A program made the translations under genes and the position numbers. A model generated the notes under the pieces. That model had not been told where the DNA came from. It did no database searches and worked only from the letters and a program-made list of their open reading frames with translations. This document shows, piece by piece, positions 3,653-45,489 of a stretch of 64,000 nt of DNA. Location of the stretch: sequence record OP172785, one strand, 5' to 3'. The stretch's first letter is position 1. Each line of letters begins with the position of its first letter. The stretch comes from Escherichia phage ECO07P2.

Positions 3653-4174
3653 TTATCCTTTCATTGAAGGTGTAACAGTTGTTAAATACTTAATCATAGC
3701 TTCAGCTTCTGATTTTGATAATGAAATTTCTCCATTGTTTTGACGAATAGAAATAAAATCCGGATGACGGTCACCACCAGCTTTTAAAACACACATATAA
3801 GTATCAGTTTCATCTTCAATATTTGAAATAATTGAAGCAGTTCCGCATGAATGCGGTTTTTGATAAATCAATACGGCTTTTCTTCCACCGTTTGACTGTT
3901 CATAAACTTTTAACACATCAAACAAATCACTTCTTTTATCAATAGCTAAGATGTTGTTTTCATCTTCAATGTTAAATCCTTCGGATACTTCATAAAGTGT
4001 CACCCATAAATCACCTATATCGATAGTAGCATTTTCCTTTCCATGACTTTCAAGAGTATGACAAATTTTCTTGATTTCGTCATAACTCATTTTAATAATA
4101 TCATCTCCTTGAATAAGGAAGATGTCATTTTTAAATTCAATACGAATTAAACCACTTTCACTCGAAATAAACAT
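3653..4174 (-). CDS. hypothetical protein, paralog of adjacent ORF 4182-4739
   Basis: 173 aa; shares GFNIE(D/S)E and C-terminal (A/E)xxK(T/Y)YL(D/T)(S/T)V(I/T)P(T/S)M with neighbour. Confidence 0.6.
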   Translation of the reverse strand: MFISSESGLIRIEFKNDIFLIQGDDIIKMSYDEIKKICHTLESHGKENATIDIGDLWVTLYEVSEGFNIEDENNILAIDKRSDLFDVLKVYEQSNGGRKAVLIYQKPHSCGTASIISNIEDETDTYMCVLKAGGDRHPDFISIRQNNGEISLSKSEAEAMIKYLTTVTPSMKG

Positions 4175-4181
4175 ATTTTCC

Positions 4182-4739
4182 TCACTTTGAAATCATAGTT
4201 GGAATGACAGAATCAAGATAAGTCTTTAGCGCAATAGCTTCGTCTTTGGTAAATGTGACAATATGTGATCGAAAATCGTCAATTTGGCGAATAGTTAAGA
4301 CATCTCCCTCTTCATAACATTTTGATACATTTAAAAGAGTTTCATCATTCTGATTGCAAGCGTTAGTAATAATAGCATTGCAATTTTTGAGCCATTTTAA
4401 ACTATGTTTTCTTTCATTAGAATAATAAAAATATTTAATCTTAGCTATAAAATTATCCCAATTATTAATTGATAAGCATATCGACTCGCTTTCAATATTA
4501 AATCCTGGGCATAAAGAATAAAAATGAATTTTATGCTCATCATTAATGCTTACAATTTTATCAGTATAAGGTTTTTCAATTTGGGTTAAATGAATAATTT
4601 CGCTAGGCGTAAAATATAGCATATCGTCTTCTTGCGTCAAACGATACATATTATTTACTTTTTCTATAGCCAATTCACCAAAAAGTGAACTAACTTCTAA
4701 TACTAATCGTTTCATATTGATTCTCTTCGACTCACTCAC
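4182..4739 (-). CDS. hypothetical protein, paralog of adjacent ORF 3653-4174
   Basis: 185 aa; first codon at 4739 is GTG with AGGAG 8 nt upstream, alternative ATG at 4715; C-terminal similarity to neighbour. Confidence 0.5.
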   Translation of the reverse strand: MSESKRINMKRLVLEVSSLFGELAIEKVNNMYRLTQEDDMLYFTPSEIIHLTQIEKPYTDKIVSINDEHKIHFYSLCPGFNIESESICLSINNWDNFIAKIKYFYYSNERKHSLKWLKNCNAIITNACNQNDETLLNVSKCYEEGDVLTIRQIDDFRSHIVTFTKDEAIALKTYLDSVIPTMISK

Positions 4740-5069: not shown

Positions 5070-5264
5070 TCAGTTTTCATTATTCCACCTAATCATTTCA
5101 AGATATTGAACTAACTTAGCTTTGGATTTATCCAAATCTCTTTTAGCTGCTTCTATACCGTCGTATGAATATCCTTCACAATGCTCAACTGCTAATTGAT
5201 ATGAATCTATTTCAACATCACGTACTAATTTAATGATTTTTTCAAACTGTTCGTGTGTCAGCAT
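5070..5264 (-). CDS. small hypothetical protein (64 aa)
   Basis: ORF in track with ATG at 5262-5264; acidic helical-looking sequence. Confidence 0.45.
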   Translation of the reverse strand: MLTHEQFEKIIKLVRDVEIDSYQLAVEHCEGYSYDGIEAAKRDLDKSKAKLVQYLEMIRWNNEN

Positions 5265-5266
5265 AC

Positions 5267-5449
5267 TTAAACTCTCGTATTATGATCGATAATTTCATCA
5301 AGAAACATATCTAAAGCTTCTACAGCATTATCAACTTTAGCTTCAAATTCTTCAATACCTGATAAGGCAAAGTTAACGCGTTCCTCATCTGCTTTGCGAA
5401 TTAAAGCTACCAATTCTTTAATTTTATCTGCTTGTTCGATACTAATCAT
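5267..5449 (-). CDS. small hypothetical protein (about 60 aa)
   Basis: start moved to ATG at 5449 (GGTGG SD) which overlaps stop of upstream gene. Confidence 0.45.
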   Translation of the reverse strand: MISIEQADKIKELVALIRKADEERVNFALSGIEEFEAKVDNAVEALDMFLDEIIDHNTRV

Positions 5450-5637
5450 TATTCCACCACATATGAAAGAGAGAATATTGCACACGCCATATGAGTTGCA
5501 GCTTCATCACACATATCATAACGTTTCTTAAGAAGTTCTTCAAGTTCTTCACTGGTAACTTCATCCATGTCGACGAAAAAATCACCATTAATGATGACGT
5601 AGATATTTCCTTCTTGATTAAGTGCTTCAATTTTCAT
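5449..5637 (-). CDS. small acidic hypothetical protein (62 aa)
   Basis: start moved to ATG at 5637 preceded by AGAGGAG SD; track ORF extends to 5682 only for lack of a stop. Confidence 0.5.
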
Positions 5638-5665
5638 GATGTTCTCCTCTTTATCCGATGGTTGT

Positions 5666-5695
5666 ATAGTATCACAGCTCAAATGGAAAGTAAAC
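5666..5695 (-). promoter_or_regulatory. T4-type early promoter
   Basis: gtaaac 5690-5695, atagta 5666-5671, spacer 18. Confidence 0.6.
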
Positions 5696-5704
5696 CGGTA
5701 AAAT

Positions 5705-5728
5705 GAAAAAAGTCTCCCGAAGGAGACT
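5705..5728 (-). terminator. rho-independent terminator with UUCG tetraloop (minus strand)
   Basis: minus-strand RNA AGUCUCC-UUCG-GGAGACU followed by U6; directly after stop of ORF 5733-6119. Confidence 0.7.
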
Positions 5729-5732
5729 AATG

Positions 5733-6119
5733 TTATTCGAGGGAAAGAAGATACTTACTCTGGTAAAACATTCCAGTAATATCATCTATCGTGCTTTGAA
5801 TGGCTGGAGGCATTTCTTTGTAAATGCTGTTAGATTGGTCTAGTATGCGATCAATCATTTTAACTGTATCAGTAGGAAGTTTACTGGCATCCGGAATTGA
5901 CGGTGTGTATTTTCTACCAGAATACCCCAAATATTGCTCACCAAATTTATCAATCAAATCTGGCAACTCAGAGAAAATAAAATCGTATGCTTTGTGTCTA
6001 GCATAACTTTTAGTTTCAAAATGCGCAGAATGAAAATAAGCTTGCGCAGCCATTAATAAACCTAAGTATTCATCTGCCTTTGAAGGTTTTCCGCTTTGTG
6101 AAAAGTCGCTGAATTTCAT
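5733..6119 (-). CDS. rI.-1: hypothetical protein at the T4 rI.-1 position
   Basis: 128 aa ORF immediately downstream of rI; length and position match T4 rI.-1 as I recall it. Confidence 0.6.
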
Positions 6120-9700: not shown

Positions 9701-9979
9701 TTATTCTTTAAATCTAATCAATTTATTCATAGACTTTGAAACTTCTGCACGAACCTCATGTAGGTTTTTGAGCTGTTCAAGACGCTGCTCATAGTAAGCA
9801 ATTTCATCTTCTTCGAGACAGTCCTGTGAATCTTCTTTAAGATAACGTGCGTAGTCCTGGAAAGCTTTACGGACTACTTCCTGGAAGTCATCAAGGCTTT
9901 GAATTTTCTTAGGAGCGACAGATACACGACGAGGGGCAGTATAATACTCATAACCAAACCCTGCGCTTAATTGAGCCAT
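9701..9979 (-). CDS. hypothetical protein (about 92 aa)
   Basis: start moved to ATG 9979 overlapping upstream stop (ATGA-type coupling). Confidence 0.45.
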
Positions 9980-10245
9980 TAATATTTTTCCTCTGGTTGG
10001 AACACAGCACGACAAGCCCACATACTGGCTTCTTTGAGTTTCGTTTTAGCAATAGTTAACTGATCGAGGCTTTCAGCATAATTCTTCGCGAATTCACAGT
10101 CTTCACAATTATCTAGTGCTTCCCAGAATTCGTCATATAAAGCATCAAAGATAAGTCCTAAACGAACTTCAGCATCTTTGATAGCATTCACTTTACCGAT
10201 TTTCTCTTCAGTATGTGGTTTATAACCTTTAATGTCTTCAATCAT
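9979..10245 (-). CDS. hypothetical protein (88 aa)
   Basis: ORF in track, ATG start, coupled to neighbours. Confidence 0.5.
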
Positions 10246-10459
10246 ATTCTACTTCCTCACCAGTACATAAATCATATTCAACTAAACGAATAGGTTCATG
10301 AATGCCATATCCTTGAACAGAAATTTCTGTCGTAGGATAAATTCCACTAATATCACCCATGTTCCACGCTTCATTAAATTGTTGTTCGCCTGAATTACTA
10401 AACCATTCGGCGAAAGCATTTAGCACATCTTTAGAACCTTCAATAATTATTTTTGCCAT
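10238..10459 (-). CDS. hypothetical protein (73 aa)
   Basis: ORF in track, ATG start. Confidence 0.5.
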   Translation of the reverse strand: MAKIIIEGSKDVLNAFAEWFSNSGEQQFNEAWNMGDISGIYPTTEISVQGYGIHEPIRLVEYDLCTGEEVEYD

Positions 10460-10821
10460 TACAAGCTCTCAGTAAAGGTACGAGCGATAACGTCGCGCTG
10501 CTGTTCCGGAGTCAGAGAGTTAAAGCGAACTGCATAACCGGATACACGGATGGTCAGCTGCGGATATTTTTCCGGATGCTTAACTGCATCTTCCAGAGTT
10601 TCACGACGCAAAACGTTTACGTTCAGGTGTTGACCACCTTCAATTTTAACCGTAGGCTGTGGTTCAATTTCAATTTCACGGGCATGCAAACCGTAGAAAA
10701 TTTCCGGATCTACAAAAGAGTCCTCTTTAAAGGTTTTAGAGACAATAATTCGTGCTTGAATACCATCTTCAAAATAAATAGTACCTTTATGTGTGCCTTC
10801 AAGAATTTGATATGCTTTCAT
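10459..10821 (-). CDS. grcA: autonomous glycyl radical cofactor (GrcA/YfiD-like; T4 Y06I-type)
   Basis: 120 aa; C-terminal [61 protein letters not shown] is essentially the E. coli GrcA glycyl-radical motif (RVSGY). Confidence 0.9.
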
Positions 10822-10827
10822 ATAACC

Positions 10828-11157
10828 TCAATTAGAAAATAAATTTATCCAAGATTGTTCTTTAATTAAAAATGGCTCAGAATCATATGCCATTAAACTT
10901 TGGGTGATTAGTCCTTTAAAAGGCCCATCAATAAATTCCATGGTAAAATATGGAATTTTATTCATTAATCTTGCATTAGGAGCAGTGCACAAAACTCTGC
11001 ATCCTTTGAATACGCCTTTTTGTAATTTGTATTGCTTAGGATAAAATTCGCTCAAGACGTTGTTATTTGCCAAAATTTCAAAATGATTCACCAATTTATT
11101 TTTAATAGTTTTTGGCGAAAAATAAAGATATTCGAAAAGTTGCGTATCTGTCATCAT
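10828..11157 (-). CDS. hypothetical protein (about 109 aa)
   Basis: start moved to ATG at 11157/11154 in an ATGATGA overlap with upstream stop. Confidence 0.45.
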   Translation of the reverse strand: MMTDTQLFEYLYFSPKTIKNKLVNHFEILANNNVLSEFYPKQYKLQKGVFKGCRVLCTAPNARLMNKIPYFTMEFIDGPFKGLITQSLMAYDSEPFLIKEQSWINLFSN

Positions 11158-11691
11158 TGCATTCCGATTACGAAAAACTGTGGACGAGTAATACCACCAG
11201 TACAGCATTTACTATTGCAGCAGTGTTGCACAGTTTCAATATGAATATCGTAAATTTTATCCATATCAGGAGATTTAACAGGCTCATCGATTATATACAA
11301 AATTCGAGAAAGCGATAAACCTCTGAACTTGCTACCTCTATTACCAACAAAACTACGGACAGAATCAGTAAATAAGCGGAATCGAATATCATCATTAGAA
11401 TAACGCGAAAATTCTTTTTTAATGTGGCCCGCAGAAATTTTAGCGTAAGCTGAAGTATTAGAAAGAACAATAACTGTTCCACCATCATACAGCCAATTAG
11501 CAGCAAAGTTAGTCACAGCAGTTGATTTACCAGATTGACGTCCACCATCTAGTCGAAGTGTGCAATACTGCTTAAGTAAGTCTTCAAATGGTGGGATATA
11601 ATCGTTTTTACAAATTTCTTCTACTCTAGCATCAGAATGGTGTGTAAAAGCATTCATCAGGGATAGATAAGGACCAGTTAAAAATGTTCTC
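11154..11691 (-). CDS. small P-loop NTPase-like protein
   Basis: about 179 aa from ATG 11691; Walker A-like GGRQSGKST and hydrophobic-DE stretch ILYIIDEP. Confidence 0.5.
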
Positions 11692-11727
11692 ATTTTATTC
11701 TCTCTAAATTTGGGCCATTCCATGGCG

Positions 11728-11762
11728 CATGAATTGTCCATTTCTGTATTTACCCATTACCG
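11728..11762 (-). repeat. copy 1 of a 35-bp conserved intergenic element (second copy at 12374-12408)
   Basis: 33/35 identity between the two copies; both sit 40-90 nt upstream of minus-strand gene starts. Confidence 0.6.
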
Positions 11763-11846
11763 CACTTGGGCTCGACCTTATTACAGGTTGGCGGGAATCC
11801 CTCATAGAACCATGAGGTCCAGCTTGTTCCCATATTTCTTATTTGC

Positions 11847-12320
11847 TTATTTGAATGATTTGACGTACTGAATAGAGCCTTTGCTATTCACGAAAGCGAT
11901 TTTACCATTTTTATTATACATGGTAGCAGTACGCTGATAGCCATAAGTTTGCTTACCAGATTGATAACCAACTAATGCAAAATTATCTTCACCCATTTTA
12001 TTCTGTTTAGCACGAATGCGTTCATGACCATGCGCCATAAGAACCTTAGCATCACCAGTTGCAATGGATCTACGAGTTTTTTCATCTTCAACTGTATTAA
12101 CAAAGTCGTCAAATGAATCAAATTTAGCGTGAGATTTATTATACAGTTTTCCATCTACTGCATAATTGTATCCCTGTACATCCATCTCAACTTCTGTACC
12201 ATCATCCAATACAGCAGTGATTTTTTGACCTTTTTTAAATTTCAAAAGATCAGTAAAAGATTCAGCAATAATTTGAGAATTAATAGCTGCCTCAGTAATA
12301 AATTCTTGATATGTTTTCAT
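11847..12320 (-). CDS. capsid-targeting-sequence (CTS) protein, internal-protein-like
   Basis: 157 aa; N-terminus MKTYQEFITEAA is the T4 CTS shared by IPI, IPII, IPIII and Alt and cut by gp21 after Glu. Confidence 0.7.
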   Translation of the reverse strand: MKTYQEFITEAAINSQIIAESFTDLLKFKKGQKITAVLDDGTEVEMDVQGYNYAVDGKLYNKSHAKFDSFDDFVNTVEDEKTRRSIATGDAKVLMAHGHERIRAKQNKMGEDNFALVGYQSGKQTYGYQRTATMYNKNGKIAFVNSKGSIQYVKSFK

Positions 12321-12360
12321 GTTATCCTTTAAATGTAAATAGTTTTATTCTTTAAGTTTT

Positions 12361-12408
12361 GGACAATTCACACGCATGAATTGTCCGTTTCTATATTTAC
12401 CCATTACC
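12361..12408 (-). repeat. copy 2 of conserved intergenic element, with perfect 10-bp inverted repeat
   Basis: ggacaattca-cacgca-tgaattgtcc hairpin (12361-12386) overlapping the 35-bp core shared with 11728-11762. Confidence 0.6.
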
Positions 12409-12427
12409 AGGTTCGAAATCGGCTTTA

Positions 12428-13006
12428 TTAAGAATTACCACGGGCTGCATTAGCAACGGCGTAAGCGTACTGAACATTAGCGTCTTTAAACGTACCTTTA
12501 GAGGTATCTAGTTCTGCCTTAAAGCCGCCTTTAGTCATAACCTCGGCGAATTCTTTACGGAAAGCCATTGCATCAAGGCTTCTCCATGACGATTTGTGCT
12601 TGGCGAATTCAAGACCAGCGTAGTTGACAGCCTTAGCTAATTTATTATCAATAACCCATTTACCAGCTTTAGGCACAAATACCGGGCCTTTCTGTTTGGA
12701 GAATAGTTTTAAATTCCAGCGACGAAGGTCACCGTCAGCTTTAACAAAAGCTGCGTCCAAGTTACTAGCAACAACATCTTGAATATGGCCAAATTTAAGC
12801 CCATCAACTTCAATATTTAGATCAGTACGCCAGCGAAGTCCTTCCCAAGCGAAAGCTTTAAAGTCAGAAGCCTTTGTAGCTAAATACCGTTCAATAGGAG
12901 CTGTTTTAGGGTCAAAGCCGTTTCCTCGGTAAGTCCACTCATCTTTATTAATGCCTTTGGCCTTTTCCACAGAAGCTTCAGTGATAAATTCTTTATAGGT
13001 TTTCAT
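12428..13006 (-). CDS. CTS protein (IPIII-sized internal protein)
   Basis: 192 aa; N-terminus MKTYKEFITEAS; length close to T4 IPIII (194 aa) but identity not verified. Confidence 0.7.
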   Translation of the reverse strand: MKTYKEFITEASVEKAKGINKDEWTYRGNGFDPKTAPIERYLATKASDFKAFAWEGLRWRTDLNIEVDGLKFGHIQDVVASNLDAAFVKADGDLRRWNLKLFSKQKGPVFVPKAGKWVIDNKLAKAVNYAGLEFAKHKSSWRSLDAMAFRKEFAEVMTKGGFKAELDTSKGTFKDANVQYAYAVANAARGNS

Positions 13007-19837: not shown

Positions 19838-20125
19838 TTACCATTTATGATAATACATATTTACGATGCATTCAAGACCCAAAGGATTCTTGAAAATATC
19901 ATATTCAAGAGGACCTTTTTCTGTTTCAATAAAGAAATCAAAATTTACTGTATTAAATTTACGGTCTTCCTTCACTAATTTAACTTGAGAAGATGAACGG
20001 TCAATGTAAACCTTTTCAACTTCAAAACATGTTAAAATGCCATAATCATCAATCAAGGCTTTAGCCGCATCTTGATCATATTTATATCCATTTTCAATGG
20101 ACGATACTTTCGCATAAAGAATCAT
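19838..20125 (-). CDS. hypothetical protein (95 aa)
   Basis: ORF in track. Confidence 0.5.
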   Translation of the reverse strand: MILYAKVSSIENGYKYDQDAAKALIDDYGILTCFEVEKVYIDRSSSQVKLVKEDRKFNTVNFDFFIETEKGPLEYDIFKNPLGLECIVNMYYHKW

Positions 20126-20127
20126 TA

Positions 20128-20532
20128 TTAACCTTTATCAACAATAGTATGTGTATGGGCATTTACAATTTGCCACCAGTCGAAACTATCGCCAAATCGT
20201 TTTGATTTATTGTCTTCAATAATTTGGCGTAATTCATCTTCTGTTTCAGCATACGCAATCAAATCATCATATCCACCGCAAGGATAGTAATTATCGCCTG
20301 CGAACAAAAGAAAATTTACTTTAGATGGGTCTACATAATAATGCTCTTTAGGATATTTAGTTCCTTTCCAATCAGTTACTTCAACATAACGGTAAGAAAA
20401 TCCATTTTTACTTTCAACCCAACTCCACGCTTCAAAAGGAGTATTAAAAACTCTATCAGGTATTAAATTACCTTCAAAATGAGAAGGATTTGCATAATCC
20501 CCAGCATAAACATAATATTCGTTAATATTCAT
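20128..20532 (-). CDS. hypothetical protein (134 aa), Trp/Tyr-rich
   Basis: ORF in track. Confidence 0.5.
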   Translation of the reverse strand: MNINEYYVYAGDYANPSHFEGNLIPDRVFNTPFEAWSWVESKNGFSYRYVEVTDWKGTKYPKEHYYVDPSKVNFLLFAGDNYYPCGGYDDLIAYAETEDELRQIIEDNKSKRFGDSFDWWQIVNAHTHTIVDKG

Positions 20533-28061: not shown

Positions 28062-30044
28062 ATGGCAAATACCCCTGTAAATTATCAATTAACAAGAACA
28101 GCAAATGCTATTCCCGAGATATTCGTCGGGGGCACATTTGCTGAAATAAAACAAAACCTCATTGAATGGCTTAATGGCCAAAATGAATTTTTGGATTATG
28201 ATTTTGAAGGCTCAAGATTAAACGTTCTGTGTGACCTTTTGGCTTATAATACGCTGTACATTCAGCAGTTTGGTAATGCTGCCTTGTATGAAAGCTTTAT
28301 GCGTACTGCTAACTTACGTAGTTCAGTAGTTCAAGCGGCACAAGATAATGGATATTTACCTACTTCAAAATCAGCTGCTCAAACTGAAATTATGCTAACT
28401 TGTACAGACGCATTGAATAGAAATTACATTACTATTCCTCGTGGTACTCGCTTTTTAGCATATGCAAAAGATACTTCAGTTAATCCTTACAACTTTGTAT
28501 CTACTGAAGATGTTATTGCTATTCGTGATAAAAATAACCAATATTTTCCACGTTTAAAATTGGCTCAGGGACGTATAGTAAGAACTGAAATCATTTATGA
28601 TAAATTAACACCTATTATCATTTATGACAAAAATATTGATAGAAACCAGGTTAAATTATATGTTGATGGAGCAGAATGGATTAACTGGACAAGAAAGTCA
28701 ATGGTTCATGCTGGTTCTACATCAACAATTTACTACATGCGTGAAACTATTGATGGAAATACTGAGTTTTATTTTGGTGAAGGTGAGATTTCTGTTAATG
28801 CGGCAGAAGGAGCATTGACTGCTAATTATATTGGGGGTCTTAAACCTACCCAGAACTCTACGATTGTTATTGAGTACATCAGTACTAACGGCGCAGATGC
28901 GAATGGCGCAGTCGGATTTTCATATGCAGATACATTGACAAATATAACTGTCATCAACATTAATGAAAATCCAAACGATGACCCAGATTTTGTTGGGGCA
29001 GATGGCGGCGGCGATCCAGAAGATATTGAACGTATTCGCGAATTGGGTACTATTAAACGCGAAACCCAGCAACGCTGCGTAACTGCGACTGACTATGATA
29101 CATTCGTTTCAGAGAGATTTGGTTCTATTATTCAAGCAGTTCAGACTTTCACTGATTCTACTAAACCTGGTTATGCATTTATTGCTGCTAAACCTAAATC
29201 GGGGCTGTATTTAACTACTGTACAACGCGAAGATATTAAAAATTATCTCAAAGACTATAATTTAGCTCCTATTACGCCATCAATTATTTCTCCTAATTAT
29301 CTTTTTATTAAGACTAATTTAAAAGTCACATATGCTTTAAATAAGCTACAAGAATCCGAACAGTGGCTCGAAGGTCAAATAATTGATAAAATTGATCGTT
29401 ATTATACCGAAGACGTAGAAATTTTTAACTCATCTTTCGCTAAATCTAAGATGTTGACATATGTAGATGATGCAGATCACTCTATCATTGGCTCATCAGC
29501 GACAATTCAAATTGTTCGTGAAGTACAAAACTTCTATAAAACGCCTGAAGCAGGTATTAAATACAATAATCAAATAAAAGATCGTTCTATGGAATCTAAT
29601 ACGTTTTCATTTAATTCTGGACGAAAGGTTGTGAATCCTGATACTGGTTTAGAAGAAGATGTATTATATGACGTTCGCATAGTATCAACAGACCGAGATT
29701 CTAAAGGAATTGGTAAAGTTATTATTGGTCCATTTGCTTCTGGCGATGTTACAGAAAATGAAAACATTCAGCCGTATACAGGCAACGATTTTAACAAATT
29801 AGCAAATTCTGATGGACGCGACAAATACTATGTTATCGGTGAAATAAATTATCCAGCTGATGTGATTTATTGGAATATCGCTAAAATTAATTTAACATCT
29901 GAAAAATTTGAAGTTCAGACCATCGAATTATATTCTGACCCAACCGATGATGTTATCTTTACTCGCGACGGTTCACTGATTGTATTTGAAAATGACTTAC
30001 GTCCACAATACTTAACTATCGATTTGGAGCCTATATCACAATGA
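28062..30044 (+). CDS. 6: baseplate wedge protein gp6
   Basis: 660 aa; synteny and size identical to T4. Confidence 0.9.
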   Translation: MANTPVNYQLTRTANAIPEIFVGGTFAEIKQNLIEWLNGQNEFLDYDFEGSRLNVLCDLLAYNTLYIQQFGNAALYESFMRTANLRSSVVQAAQDNGYLPTSKSAAQTEIMLTCTDALNRNYITIPRGTRFLAYAKDTSVNPYNFVSTEDVIAIRDKNNQYFPRLKLAQGRIVRTEIIYDKLTPIIIYDKNIDRNQVKLYVDGAEWINWTRKSMVHAGSTSTIYYMRETIDGNTEFYFGEGEISVNAAEGALTANYIGGLKPTQNSTIVIEYISTNGADANGAVGFSYADTLTNITVININENPNDDPDFVGADGGGDPEDIERIRELGTIKRETQQRCVTATDYDTFVSERFGSIIQAVQTFTDSTKPGYAFIAAKPKSGLYLTTVQREDIKNYLKDYNLAPITPSIISPNYLFIKTNLKVTYALNKLQESEQWLEGQIIDKIDRYYTEDVEIFNSSFAKSKMLTYVDDADHSIIGSSATIQIVREVQNFYKTPEAGIKYNNQIKDRSMESNTFSFNSGRKVVNPDTGLEEDVLYDVRIVSTDRDSKGIGKVIIGPFASGDVTENENIQPYTGNDFNKLANSDGRDKYYVIGEINYPADVIYWNIAKINLTSEKFEVQTIELYSDPTDDVIFTRDGSLIVFENDLRPQYLTIDLEPISQ

Positions 30045-42348: not shown

Positions 42349-45489
<3,141 letters not shown>

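Follow-up and report, generated by a model that had tools for sequence, protein, structure and literature searches.

The vs.8 gene and its start codon

We analyzed 64,000 nucleotides of DNA from Escherichia phage ECO07P2 (sequence record OP172785; "the window" below means this whole stretch) and report here on one small minus-strand gene, vs.8, whose predicted product is a stand-alone paralog of the ATPase core of the large terminase, gp17. A preliminary description of the window had pointed to an open reading frame (ORF) of about 179 amino acids, carrying the motifs GGRQSGKST and ILYIIDEP and lying between the GrcA block and the internal-protein block. Both motifs are present, at residues 50 to 58 and 131 to 138 of a minus-strand ORF located between vs.6 (10459-10821) and ip4 (11847-12320). 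The span first given for the ORF, 11154-11691, is right at its first position but ends 2 nt short: its length is not a multiple of 3 and its translation contains 27 stops, the ATG of the 179-amino-acid form lies at 11693, and 11154-11693 translates without internal stops. The features of the gene, together with the terminase gene to which it is compared, are as follows.

11154..11693, minus strand: vs.8 coding sequence, 179 amino acids plus a TGA stop; predicted stand-alone terminase-type P-loop ATPase core of the additional strand, catalytic E (ASCE) class
11520..11546, minus strand: Walker A motif (P-loop) GGRQSGKST, residues 50-58; aligned to gp17 S161-RQLGKT-T168
11355..11357, minus strand: R113, an invariant arginine specific to the Vs.8 family; the aligned gp17 position is not Arg
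11319..11324, minus strand: R124-G125, with the "RG" arginine that precedes the Walker B strand; paired by hhalign with gp17 R245-G246
11280..11303, minus strand: Walker B motif and catalytic carboxylate ILYIIDEP, residues 131-138 (D136, E137); aligned to gp17 MIYIDE (D255, E256)
11157..11180, minus strand: last β-strand and C-terminal G-M-Q, residues 172-179 (strand 172-177 in the model)
43654..45486, plus strand: gene 17, the large terminase of the same phage and parent type of the Vs.8 fold; RQLGKT P-loop found by motif scan

The longest mechanical ORF at the locus, 11154-11741 on the minus strand, would encode 195 amino acids. We rejected its start at 11741, as the 16-codon extension is not conserved and lies within a conserved noncoding leader. 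The conserved start is MRTFLTGPYLSLMNAF... (MRTFLTGPYL...); homolog alignments of 19 and then 36 sequences begin at this Met, and the sequence 5′ of it is absent or unrelated among homologs. In a nucleotide alignment, the frame upstream of this start is broken by indels relative to T4 (13 nt) and to Shigella phage Shfl2.

The annotated vs.8 starts of these two phages look wrong. The T4 annotation (5254-5913 of the retrieved stretch; 219 amino acids) includes a 40-amino-acid N-terminal extension that reads through the conserved noncoding leader. In Shfl2 (3756-4259 of the retrieved stretch), a 1-nt deletion falls directly after the conserved MRTF start, and the gene is annotated from a later Met, giving 167 amino acids.

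A Walker A pattern alone is unremarkable in the six-frame translation of the window (4 occurrences versus a shuffle mean of 2.4). A Walker A pattern followed in frame by hhhhDE 40 to 120 amino acids farther on was found twice, in thymidine kinase and in vs.8, versus 0 times in 50 shuffles. The vs.8 ORF is a real gene.

Judged by sequence, its ortholog in phage T4 is gene vs.8, located at 64253-64912. The two proteins are 92.7% identical over all 179 residues (T4 Vs.8, AAD42678.1), and the T4 gene has the same genomic position, conserved upstream leader, and motifs; it differs in having denV upstream, where this phage has ip4. In Shfl2 the product is annotated "hypothetical protein Vs.8" and is flanked by Vs.7, Vs.6 (GrcA-like), and Vs.5 on one side and by Ip4 and IpIII on the other. 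Vs.8 matches PHROG 1488, a family of unknown function, over its full length (E value of 3e-79; residues 19 to 195 of the long ORF against profile positions 2 to 177 of 177). No Pfam, NCBIfam, or PADLOC family was found above threshold, and a single-sequence search of the PDB gave no significant match. A Pfam "Conotoxin" match (E value of 0.0012) was discarded as an artifact of a Cys-rich loop.

This loop, HCCNSKCC (residues 157-164; 11202-11225), separates the last helix from the last strand, is confined to close relatives, and is modeled with low confidence; a metal or disulfide site is possible there.

Maps of T4 have shown the vs.8 gene for decades, with "conserved hypothetical protein" as the database label of its product. 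Annotations of vs.8 and vs.7 vary among public records: several read "endoribonuclease," probably carried over from the neighboring regB, and vs.8 is called "large terminase subunit" in the Sfk20, Roth01, Roth16, and JLBYU22 records. T4 Vs.8 has lately been described as "an uncharacterized ATPase-like protein" (PMC13601566).

Similarity of Vs.8 to the large terminase

Profile searches connect Vs.8 to terminases. It matched PHROG 2 (terminase large subunit) with an E value of 3.7e-6, and Pfam Terminase_6N, which gp17 homologs carry together with Terminase_6C, gave subthreshold matches in 20 of 36 Vs.8 family members (best, 6.8e-5). An hhalign comparison of the Vs.8 alignment with the single gp17 sequence of the window returned an E value of 4.5e-5; with a 20-sequence gp17 alignment, the probability was 92.2% and the E value 5.8e-7, Vs.8 residues 32 to 146 being aligned to gp17 residues 142 to 265. 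R52-Q53-x-G55-K56-S57 of Vs.8 is thereby paired with R162-Q163-L-G165-K166-T167, R124-G125 with R245-G246, and D136-E137 with D255-E256. The catalytic glutamate of gp17 is E256 (PMC5737356). In P74-26 TerL, a proven trans-arginine finger (R139) lies between α2 and β3, and T4 has an arginine there too (PMC5727402). We infer that this T4 arginine is R245, which would make R124 its counterpart in Vs.8.

Conservation was scored over 36 family members with identities down to 27%. Five residues, G51, G55, K56, A59, and R113, are invariant (36/36). R52 is kept in 35 members, and Q53, R124, and G125 are each kept in 34; at the Walker B motif, D136 is present in 31 (Glu in the other 5) and E137 in 34 (Asp in the other 2). 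The C terminus is similarly constrained, with G177 in 35/36 and Q179 in 33/36, and nearly every homolog ends exactly at this Q (...G-M-Q). R52 and Q53 give Vs.8 the terminase-type RQxGK[ST] signature; the P-loop arginine of terminases is the cis "sensor" arginine.

AlphaFold2, run with the 19-sequence alignment, produced a model with a predicted local distance difference test (pLDDT) score of 79.9 and a predicted template modeling (pTM) score of 0.82, in which five β-strands alternate with helices and a Cys-rich loop at residues 160 to 167 has low confidence. The structural neighbors of this model were P-loop ASCE domains, including Sf6 gp2, P74-26 TerL, and phi29 gp16; Foldseek against the PDB agreed, listing P74-26 TerL and the phi29 ATPase. 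No kinase was present among the top 60 structural neighbors. The preliminary description had proposed a small stand-alone P-loop nucleoside triphosphatase (NTPase) and named structure prediction as the check, and a P-loop fold is indeed what was predicted (pLDDT 80, pTM 0.82). Its remark that the protein is too small for an AAA or helicase core does not hold: Vs.8 is one complete RecA-like core, as in helicase domain 1 and terminase N-subdomain I. Together with the expression data given below, these analyses show that Vs.8 is conserved and expressed and that it consists of a single ASCE domain whose terminase-type nucleotide site is intact.

Other P-loop classes were considered and set aside. 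Neither a kinase-type fold nor similarity to a kinase family was found, which removed the P-loop nucleotide and nucleoside kinases. Matches to AAA+ families were limited to AAA_14 and AAA_30, both subthreshold and local to the P-loop (~15 bits versus a cutoff of 27, over ~35 residues), and Vs.8 has no C-terminal helical domain. As a candidate superfamily 1 or superfamily 2 (SF2) helicase, it is a single 179-residue domain whose structural match covers RecA1 only; unlike RecA1 of SF2/DEAD-box helicases, it has no helicase motifs beyond Walker A and Walker B, and its sequence profiles point to terminase.

With N-subdomain I of T4 gp17 (PDB 2O0H; Pfam Terminase_6N), Vs.8 shares the features looked for in a TerL ATPase: the ASCE core, the terminase-type Walker A motif RQxGK[ST] with its cis arginine, the RG arginine before Walker B, and the Walker B motif hhhhDE with its catalytic Glu. 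The differences are also clear. Vs.8 is only ~18% identical to gp17 and begins without the first ~140 residues of gp17; it has no lid (N-subdomain II), ending instead at the strand equivalent to the coupling-motif strand; and at 179 amino acids it has no RNase H-like nuclease/translocase domain (Terminase_6C, PF17289). It ends in GMQ in place of the TTT coupling motif, and by the order of elements rather than by alignment, its C terminus would correspond to gp17 T285-T287. It carries the additional invariant R113, and it is expressed early, whereas gp17 is late. Because it is without the ~140 N-terminal residues, Q143, the TTT motif, the lid, and the nuclease, Vs.8 is, on these comparisons, a terminase-ATPase paralog, a cut-down N-subdomain I of T4-type gp17, and not a terminase.

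Several results weigh against this assignment. Vs.8 misses the gathering threshold of Pfam Terminase_6N (14.6 bits versus a cutoff of 22), and pairwise BLASTP of Vs.8 against gp17 gave an E value of 0.056. Plain HMMER was weak as well: in a search of PDB sequences with the Vs.8 profile, gp17 was found with an E value of 0.15, tied with DnaB-like helicases; the terminase link needed profile-profile comparison. On fold alone, domain 1 of SF2 helicases scores level with terminase. The Vs.8 position aligned with Q143, the Gln by which gp17 binds adenine, is variable, and with neither a conserved equivalent of Q143 nor a lid, Vs.8 may differ in its catalysis or catalyze weakly. The homology itself was already known, having been published independently (PMC13601566), and is reproduced here; what we add is the residue-level conservation, the mapping of the arginines, the corrected start codon, and the figures on distribution.

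Distribution and divergence of Vs.8

The 2-kb region around vs.8 had megablast matches in 886 T4-like phage records. Of 50,697 phage records, 1010 carry vs.8 by tblastn, each as a single copy, and all are from large enterobacterial T4-like phages; tblastn from the most divergent family members (P0048 and P0053) returned the same ~1000 phage records and no new clades. A HMMER scan of 1.84 billion cluster representatives with Vs.8 gave only 35 matches. The N-terminal domain of gp17, at ≥80% identity, was present in ~1018 phage records, and Vs.8 therefore seems near-universal in the T4-type enterobacterial clade (~1010 versus ~1018, record counts being compared rather than matched singly). The two proteins have diverged to very different extents: in Klebsiella and Enterobacter T4-like phages, Vs.8 is 38 to 44% identical, versus ~84% for the gp17 N-terminal domain.

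Foldseek against predicted viral structures (BFVD) retrieved, beyond the orthologs, uncharacterized proteins of 143 to 176 amino acids with 14 to 24% identity and E values of 1e-7 to 2e-3. Some came from T4-like phages that infect Proteus, Aeromonas, Vibrio, or Acinetobacter, and others from jumbo phages such as 201phi2-1, EL, Phabio, CBB, Desertfox, and JA29. Two of these distant candidates were compared with a hidden Markov model (HMM) built from the Vs.8 alignment. Gene 103 of Aeromonas phage Aes508 (147 amino acids; 20010-20453 of the retrieved stretch) matched with an E value of 1.6e-8, has intact NAGRQTGKTT and MVDE motifs, and lies upstream of nrdB-nrdA-regB-vs.1, a position comparable to that of vs.8. 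Gene 134 of Acinetobacter phage 133 (149 amino acids; 29556-30005 of the retrieved stretch) is a candidate distant relative at a comparable genome position; its match was weak (HMM E value of 0.009 in a 50-kb search; Foldseek E value of 1.7e-3), and its P-loop, SRQYGAT, has lost the Walker A lysine. The published range is "specific phage taxa" (PMC13601566). As leads, these matches hint that the module may be broader than that and that catalysis may be dispensable in some Vs.8-like lineages; large phages may commonly encode small ASCE modules of this stand-alone kind.

Gene neighborhood and expression

The genes that flank vs.8 in the window are listed below.

9701-10245: vs.3 and vs.4, counter-defense neighbors
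10459-10821: vs.6 (GrcA-like); Gly_radical, E value of 2.8e-18
10828..11157, minus strand: vs.7, 109 amino acids, directly 3′ of vs.8; PHROG 2049, E value of 4.6e-54
11847-12320: ip4, internal protein; DUF7412, E value of 5.7e-96

The vs.8 gene is the first of the vs.8-to-vs.1 block and lies directly downstream of the internal-protein genes, on the same strand, after the e/ip block and before vs.7/vs.5...regB-vs.1. The same order is found in Shfl2, T4, STML-198-type phages, and metagenomic relatives. In relatives with only 40 to 44% identity, vs.8 still follows the lysozyme/internal-protein block as the next gene, across a gap of ~125 to 175 nt; its stop overlaps the start of a Vs.7-like or Vs.5-like gene, after which come Acb2-like, RegB, Vs.1, and Vs. 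What occupies the space between ipIII and vs.8 varies: ip4 in this phage (11847-12320) versus ipII and denV in T4 (64939-65718). In the window, denV is not at this position.

The TGA stop of vs.8 and the ATG of vs.7 overlap as ATGA (11154-11157), an arrangement that suggests translational coupling of the two genes. Among loci of distant relatives, shorter Vs.7 homologs (79 to 81 amino acids) lie 3′ of vs.8 in two and are absent from two others, and STML-198-type phages have none beside vs.8; precomputed matches assign the distant Vs.7-like proteins to Pfam Phage_T4_Y06J. Only 9 homologs of Vs.7 were found, many of them truncated, and its AlphaFold2 model reached a pLDDT of 50. With so few homologs and an unusable model, Vs.7 was dropped as an informative partner.

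Time-resolved omics of T4 classed vs.8 as both an early RNA and an early protein (PMC9697503 supplement). T4 vs.3 encodes TadIV-1, which acts as a sponge against type IV Thoeris; the same study drove the vs.3-vs.8 genes from the "promoter of vs.8" (PMC13243611). The window's vs.3 is the ortholog of T4 TadIV-1, and homologs of vs.4 carry the Acb2_Tad1_hairpin domain.

Possible functions of Vs.8

Vs.8 emerged from an AlphaFold 3 (AF3) screen in which EcAvs2, an immune sensor, was paired with proteins of T4 and PhiC120 (PMC13601566; Nat Commun, August 2026; preprint, April 2026). Vs.8 from T4 or PhiC120 was toxic on co-expression with EcAvs2, the AF3 model places Vs.8 with ATP in the terminase pocket of EcAvs2, and ATP forms a bridge from sensor to target in the EcAvs2 complex (PMC13601566). 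The same study suggested that non-terminase activators of Avs2 are possible anti-defense proteins that Avs2 learned to recognize (PMC13601566). Two such activators, Ksap1 and Ksap2 (PMC13601566), resemble Vs.8 in being small, lineage-restricted phage proteins with a terminase-ATPase-like sheet, in their reported or predicted location in the terminase pocket of Avs2, and in their toxicity on co-expression. Vs.8 differs from them in having detectable terminase sequence homology and intact Walker motifs, and it is a candidate Avs2 trigger, identified by co-expression.

The account that we consider probable as a whole is that Vs.8 is the ortholog of T4 vs.8, an early, single-domain ASCE ATPase and a cut-down paralog of gp17 N-subdomain I. 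Going by its motifs, Vs.8 very probably binds ATP-Mg. We lean slightly toward its hydrolyzing ATP as well, since the catalytic Glu is conserved although binding does not need it. Such hydrolysis would most likely involve an oligomer or a partner, given that Vs.8 proteins keep the arginine that corresponds in position to the trans finger of P74-26 TerL. Vs.8 alone would be unable to cut, package, or translocate DNA. Tentatively, we place its role in phage-host conflict, where an ATP-bound look-alike of the terminase ATPase would engage factors that recognize the TerL ATPase domain. We favor such a role because Vs.8 is expressed early, because its gene heads a block with counter-defense genes (TadIV-1 and an Acb2-family protein) beside the internal-protein genes, because it evolves far faster than gp17, and because it is recognized by a terminase sensor.

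Some observations pull the other way. The near-universality of Vs.8 in its clade is untypical of an anti-defense gene, and in its sole reported immune interaction, observed on co-expression rather than in infection, the sensor is activated rather than inhibited (PMC13601566). ATP binding, hydrolysis, and oligomeric state of Vs.8 are all predictions.

A bolder version of the conflict role, which we regard as unlikely in its full form, makes Vs.8 an early "terminase ATPase mimic," a decoy or counter-defense protein that loads ATP and then occupies, titrates, or mistimes TerL-sensing host sensors (Avs1-3, Upx-like, and others) before terminase appears. Activation of EcAvs2 would then be a host counter-adaptation, and divergent versions, some with dead P-loops, would possibly be widespread in jumbo phages and in the T4-like phages of Aeromonas, Acinetobacter, Vibrio, and Proteus. 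Essentially all enterobacterial T4-type phages keep an early, fast-evolving, catalytically intact copy of the packaging ATPase core. Were Vs.8 a decoy or counter-defense protein directed at terminase-sensing immunity, it would clearly exemplify viral duplication of a molecular pattern recognized by the host.

The bound nucleotide could also be purely structural. On this explanation, Vs.8 would be a scaffold or mimic that acts independently of ATP turnover, its fold being what matters and its Walker motifs being kept solely since bound ATP stabilizes the fold or the interface. The bridging ATP of the EcAvs2 complex (PMC13601566) fits such a role, as does the lost Walker A lysine of the candidate relative in Acinetobacter phage 133, but that relationship is weak by the HMM and Foldseek values given above, and the catalytic Glu, which binding could dispense with, is conserved in 34 of the 36 family members. 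We think this explanation quite unlikely.

Vs.8 might instead be directed at packaging itself. Mimicking a gp17 ATPase subunit, it could bind gp16 (the small terminase) or gp17 and restrain or tune terminase assembly or ATPase activity early on, for example as a "poison" or placeholder subunit that supplies the trans-arginine or receives it. The specific homology to gp17 N-subdomain I, the conservation of the intersubunit RG arginine, and the near-universal presence of Vs.8 alongside a T4-type gp17 of ≥80% identity are all what a packaging regulator would predict. The timing is not, since Vs.8 is made early while gp16 and gp17 act late; its evolution, much faster than that of gp17, is a poor fit for a tightly fitted partner; and we found no reports of a packaging phenotype or interaction of Vs.8 in the literature. 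A packaging regulator therefore seems improbable to us; if Vs.8 were one, a molecular motor that is among the best studied would gain a further component.

Similarly improbable is that Vs.8 is a nucleic acid-dependent NTPase, a single RecA-like helicase module working early, with the coupled Vs.7, on RNA or DNA of the phage or its host. The ATGA overlap of vs.8 and vs.7, the recurrence of Vs.7-like genes 3′ of vs.8 in several distant phages, and the presence in the same gene block of RegB, an RNA endonuclease, are consistent with such a pair. Helicases, however, need two RecA-like domains, and Vs.8 shows no helicase motif other than Walker A and Walker B; vs.7 is not beside vs.8 in STML-198-type phages; and the unusable Vs.7 model leaves a nucleic acid-binding partner unsupported.

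Least probable by far is the first suggestion made for this ORF, that it encodes a kinase-like enzyme acting on nucleotides or nucleosides, or else a generic small NTPase with a regulatory task: its 179 amino acids are similar in size to P-loop kinases, and the window encodes nucleotide-metabolism enzymes such as the thymidine kinase also caught by the combined Walker A and Walker B scan, but the conserved catalytic Glu directly after the Walker B Asp, the lack of any recurring kinase family in Pfam scans of the 36 members (CobU once, E value of 0.038), the absence of NCBIfam matches, and a specific profile match that is to terminase effectively exclude a kinase. A regulatory task as such may still apply to this small NTPase.

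The vs.8 leader and a repeated intergenic element

Upstream of vs.8 lies a conserved noncoding region that contains one copy of an element repeated upstream of ip4.

11694..11846, minus strand: conserved noncoding leader between ip4 and vs.8; holds the spurious 16-codon extension of the 195-amino-acid ORF
11726..11783, minus strand: repeated element, copy 1, in the vs.8 leader; core GGTAATGGGTAAATACAGAAATGGACAATTCATGCG
12373..12430, minus strand: repeated element, copy 2, upstream of ip4; a perfect 10-bp hairpin lies at 12360-12387

By eye, the ~110 nt of leader next to the start codon are near-identical to their T4 and Shfl2 counterparts, whichever gene precedes the leader (denV in T4 and ip4 here). 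The leader had no Rfam match and folded no better than shuffled sequences (z score of 0.09), and on these grounds we rejected its reading as an RNA element. Scans for promoters and terminators found sites no more often than in shuffled sequences, and a convincing T4 early, middle, or late promoter could not be placed in the leader by eye.

The preliminary description had noted copy 1 of an unexplained 35-bp element ahead of the gene. That copy is there, as part of a larger duplication of 58 nt (11726-11783 and 12373-12430) whose copies are 79% identical; its 36-nt core, GGTAATGGGTAAATAYAGAAAYGGACAATTCATGCG, occurs twice in the window versus 0 expected. T4, with denV and ipII instead of ip4, has the vs.8 copy only (5794-5940 of the retrieved T4 stretch). 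The two copies, in the regions upstream of vs.8 (11694-11846) and ip4 (12321-12430), bracket the ip4 cassette. The element may be a promoter or processing site, and its placement fits a conserved junction at which internal-protein cassettes may be exchanged by recombination.

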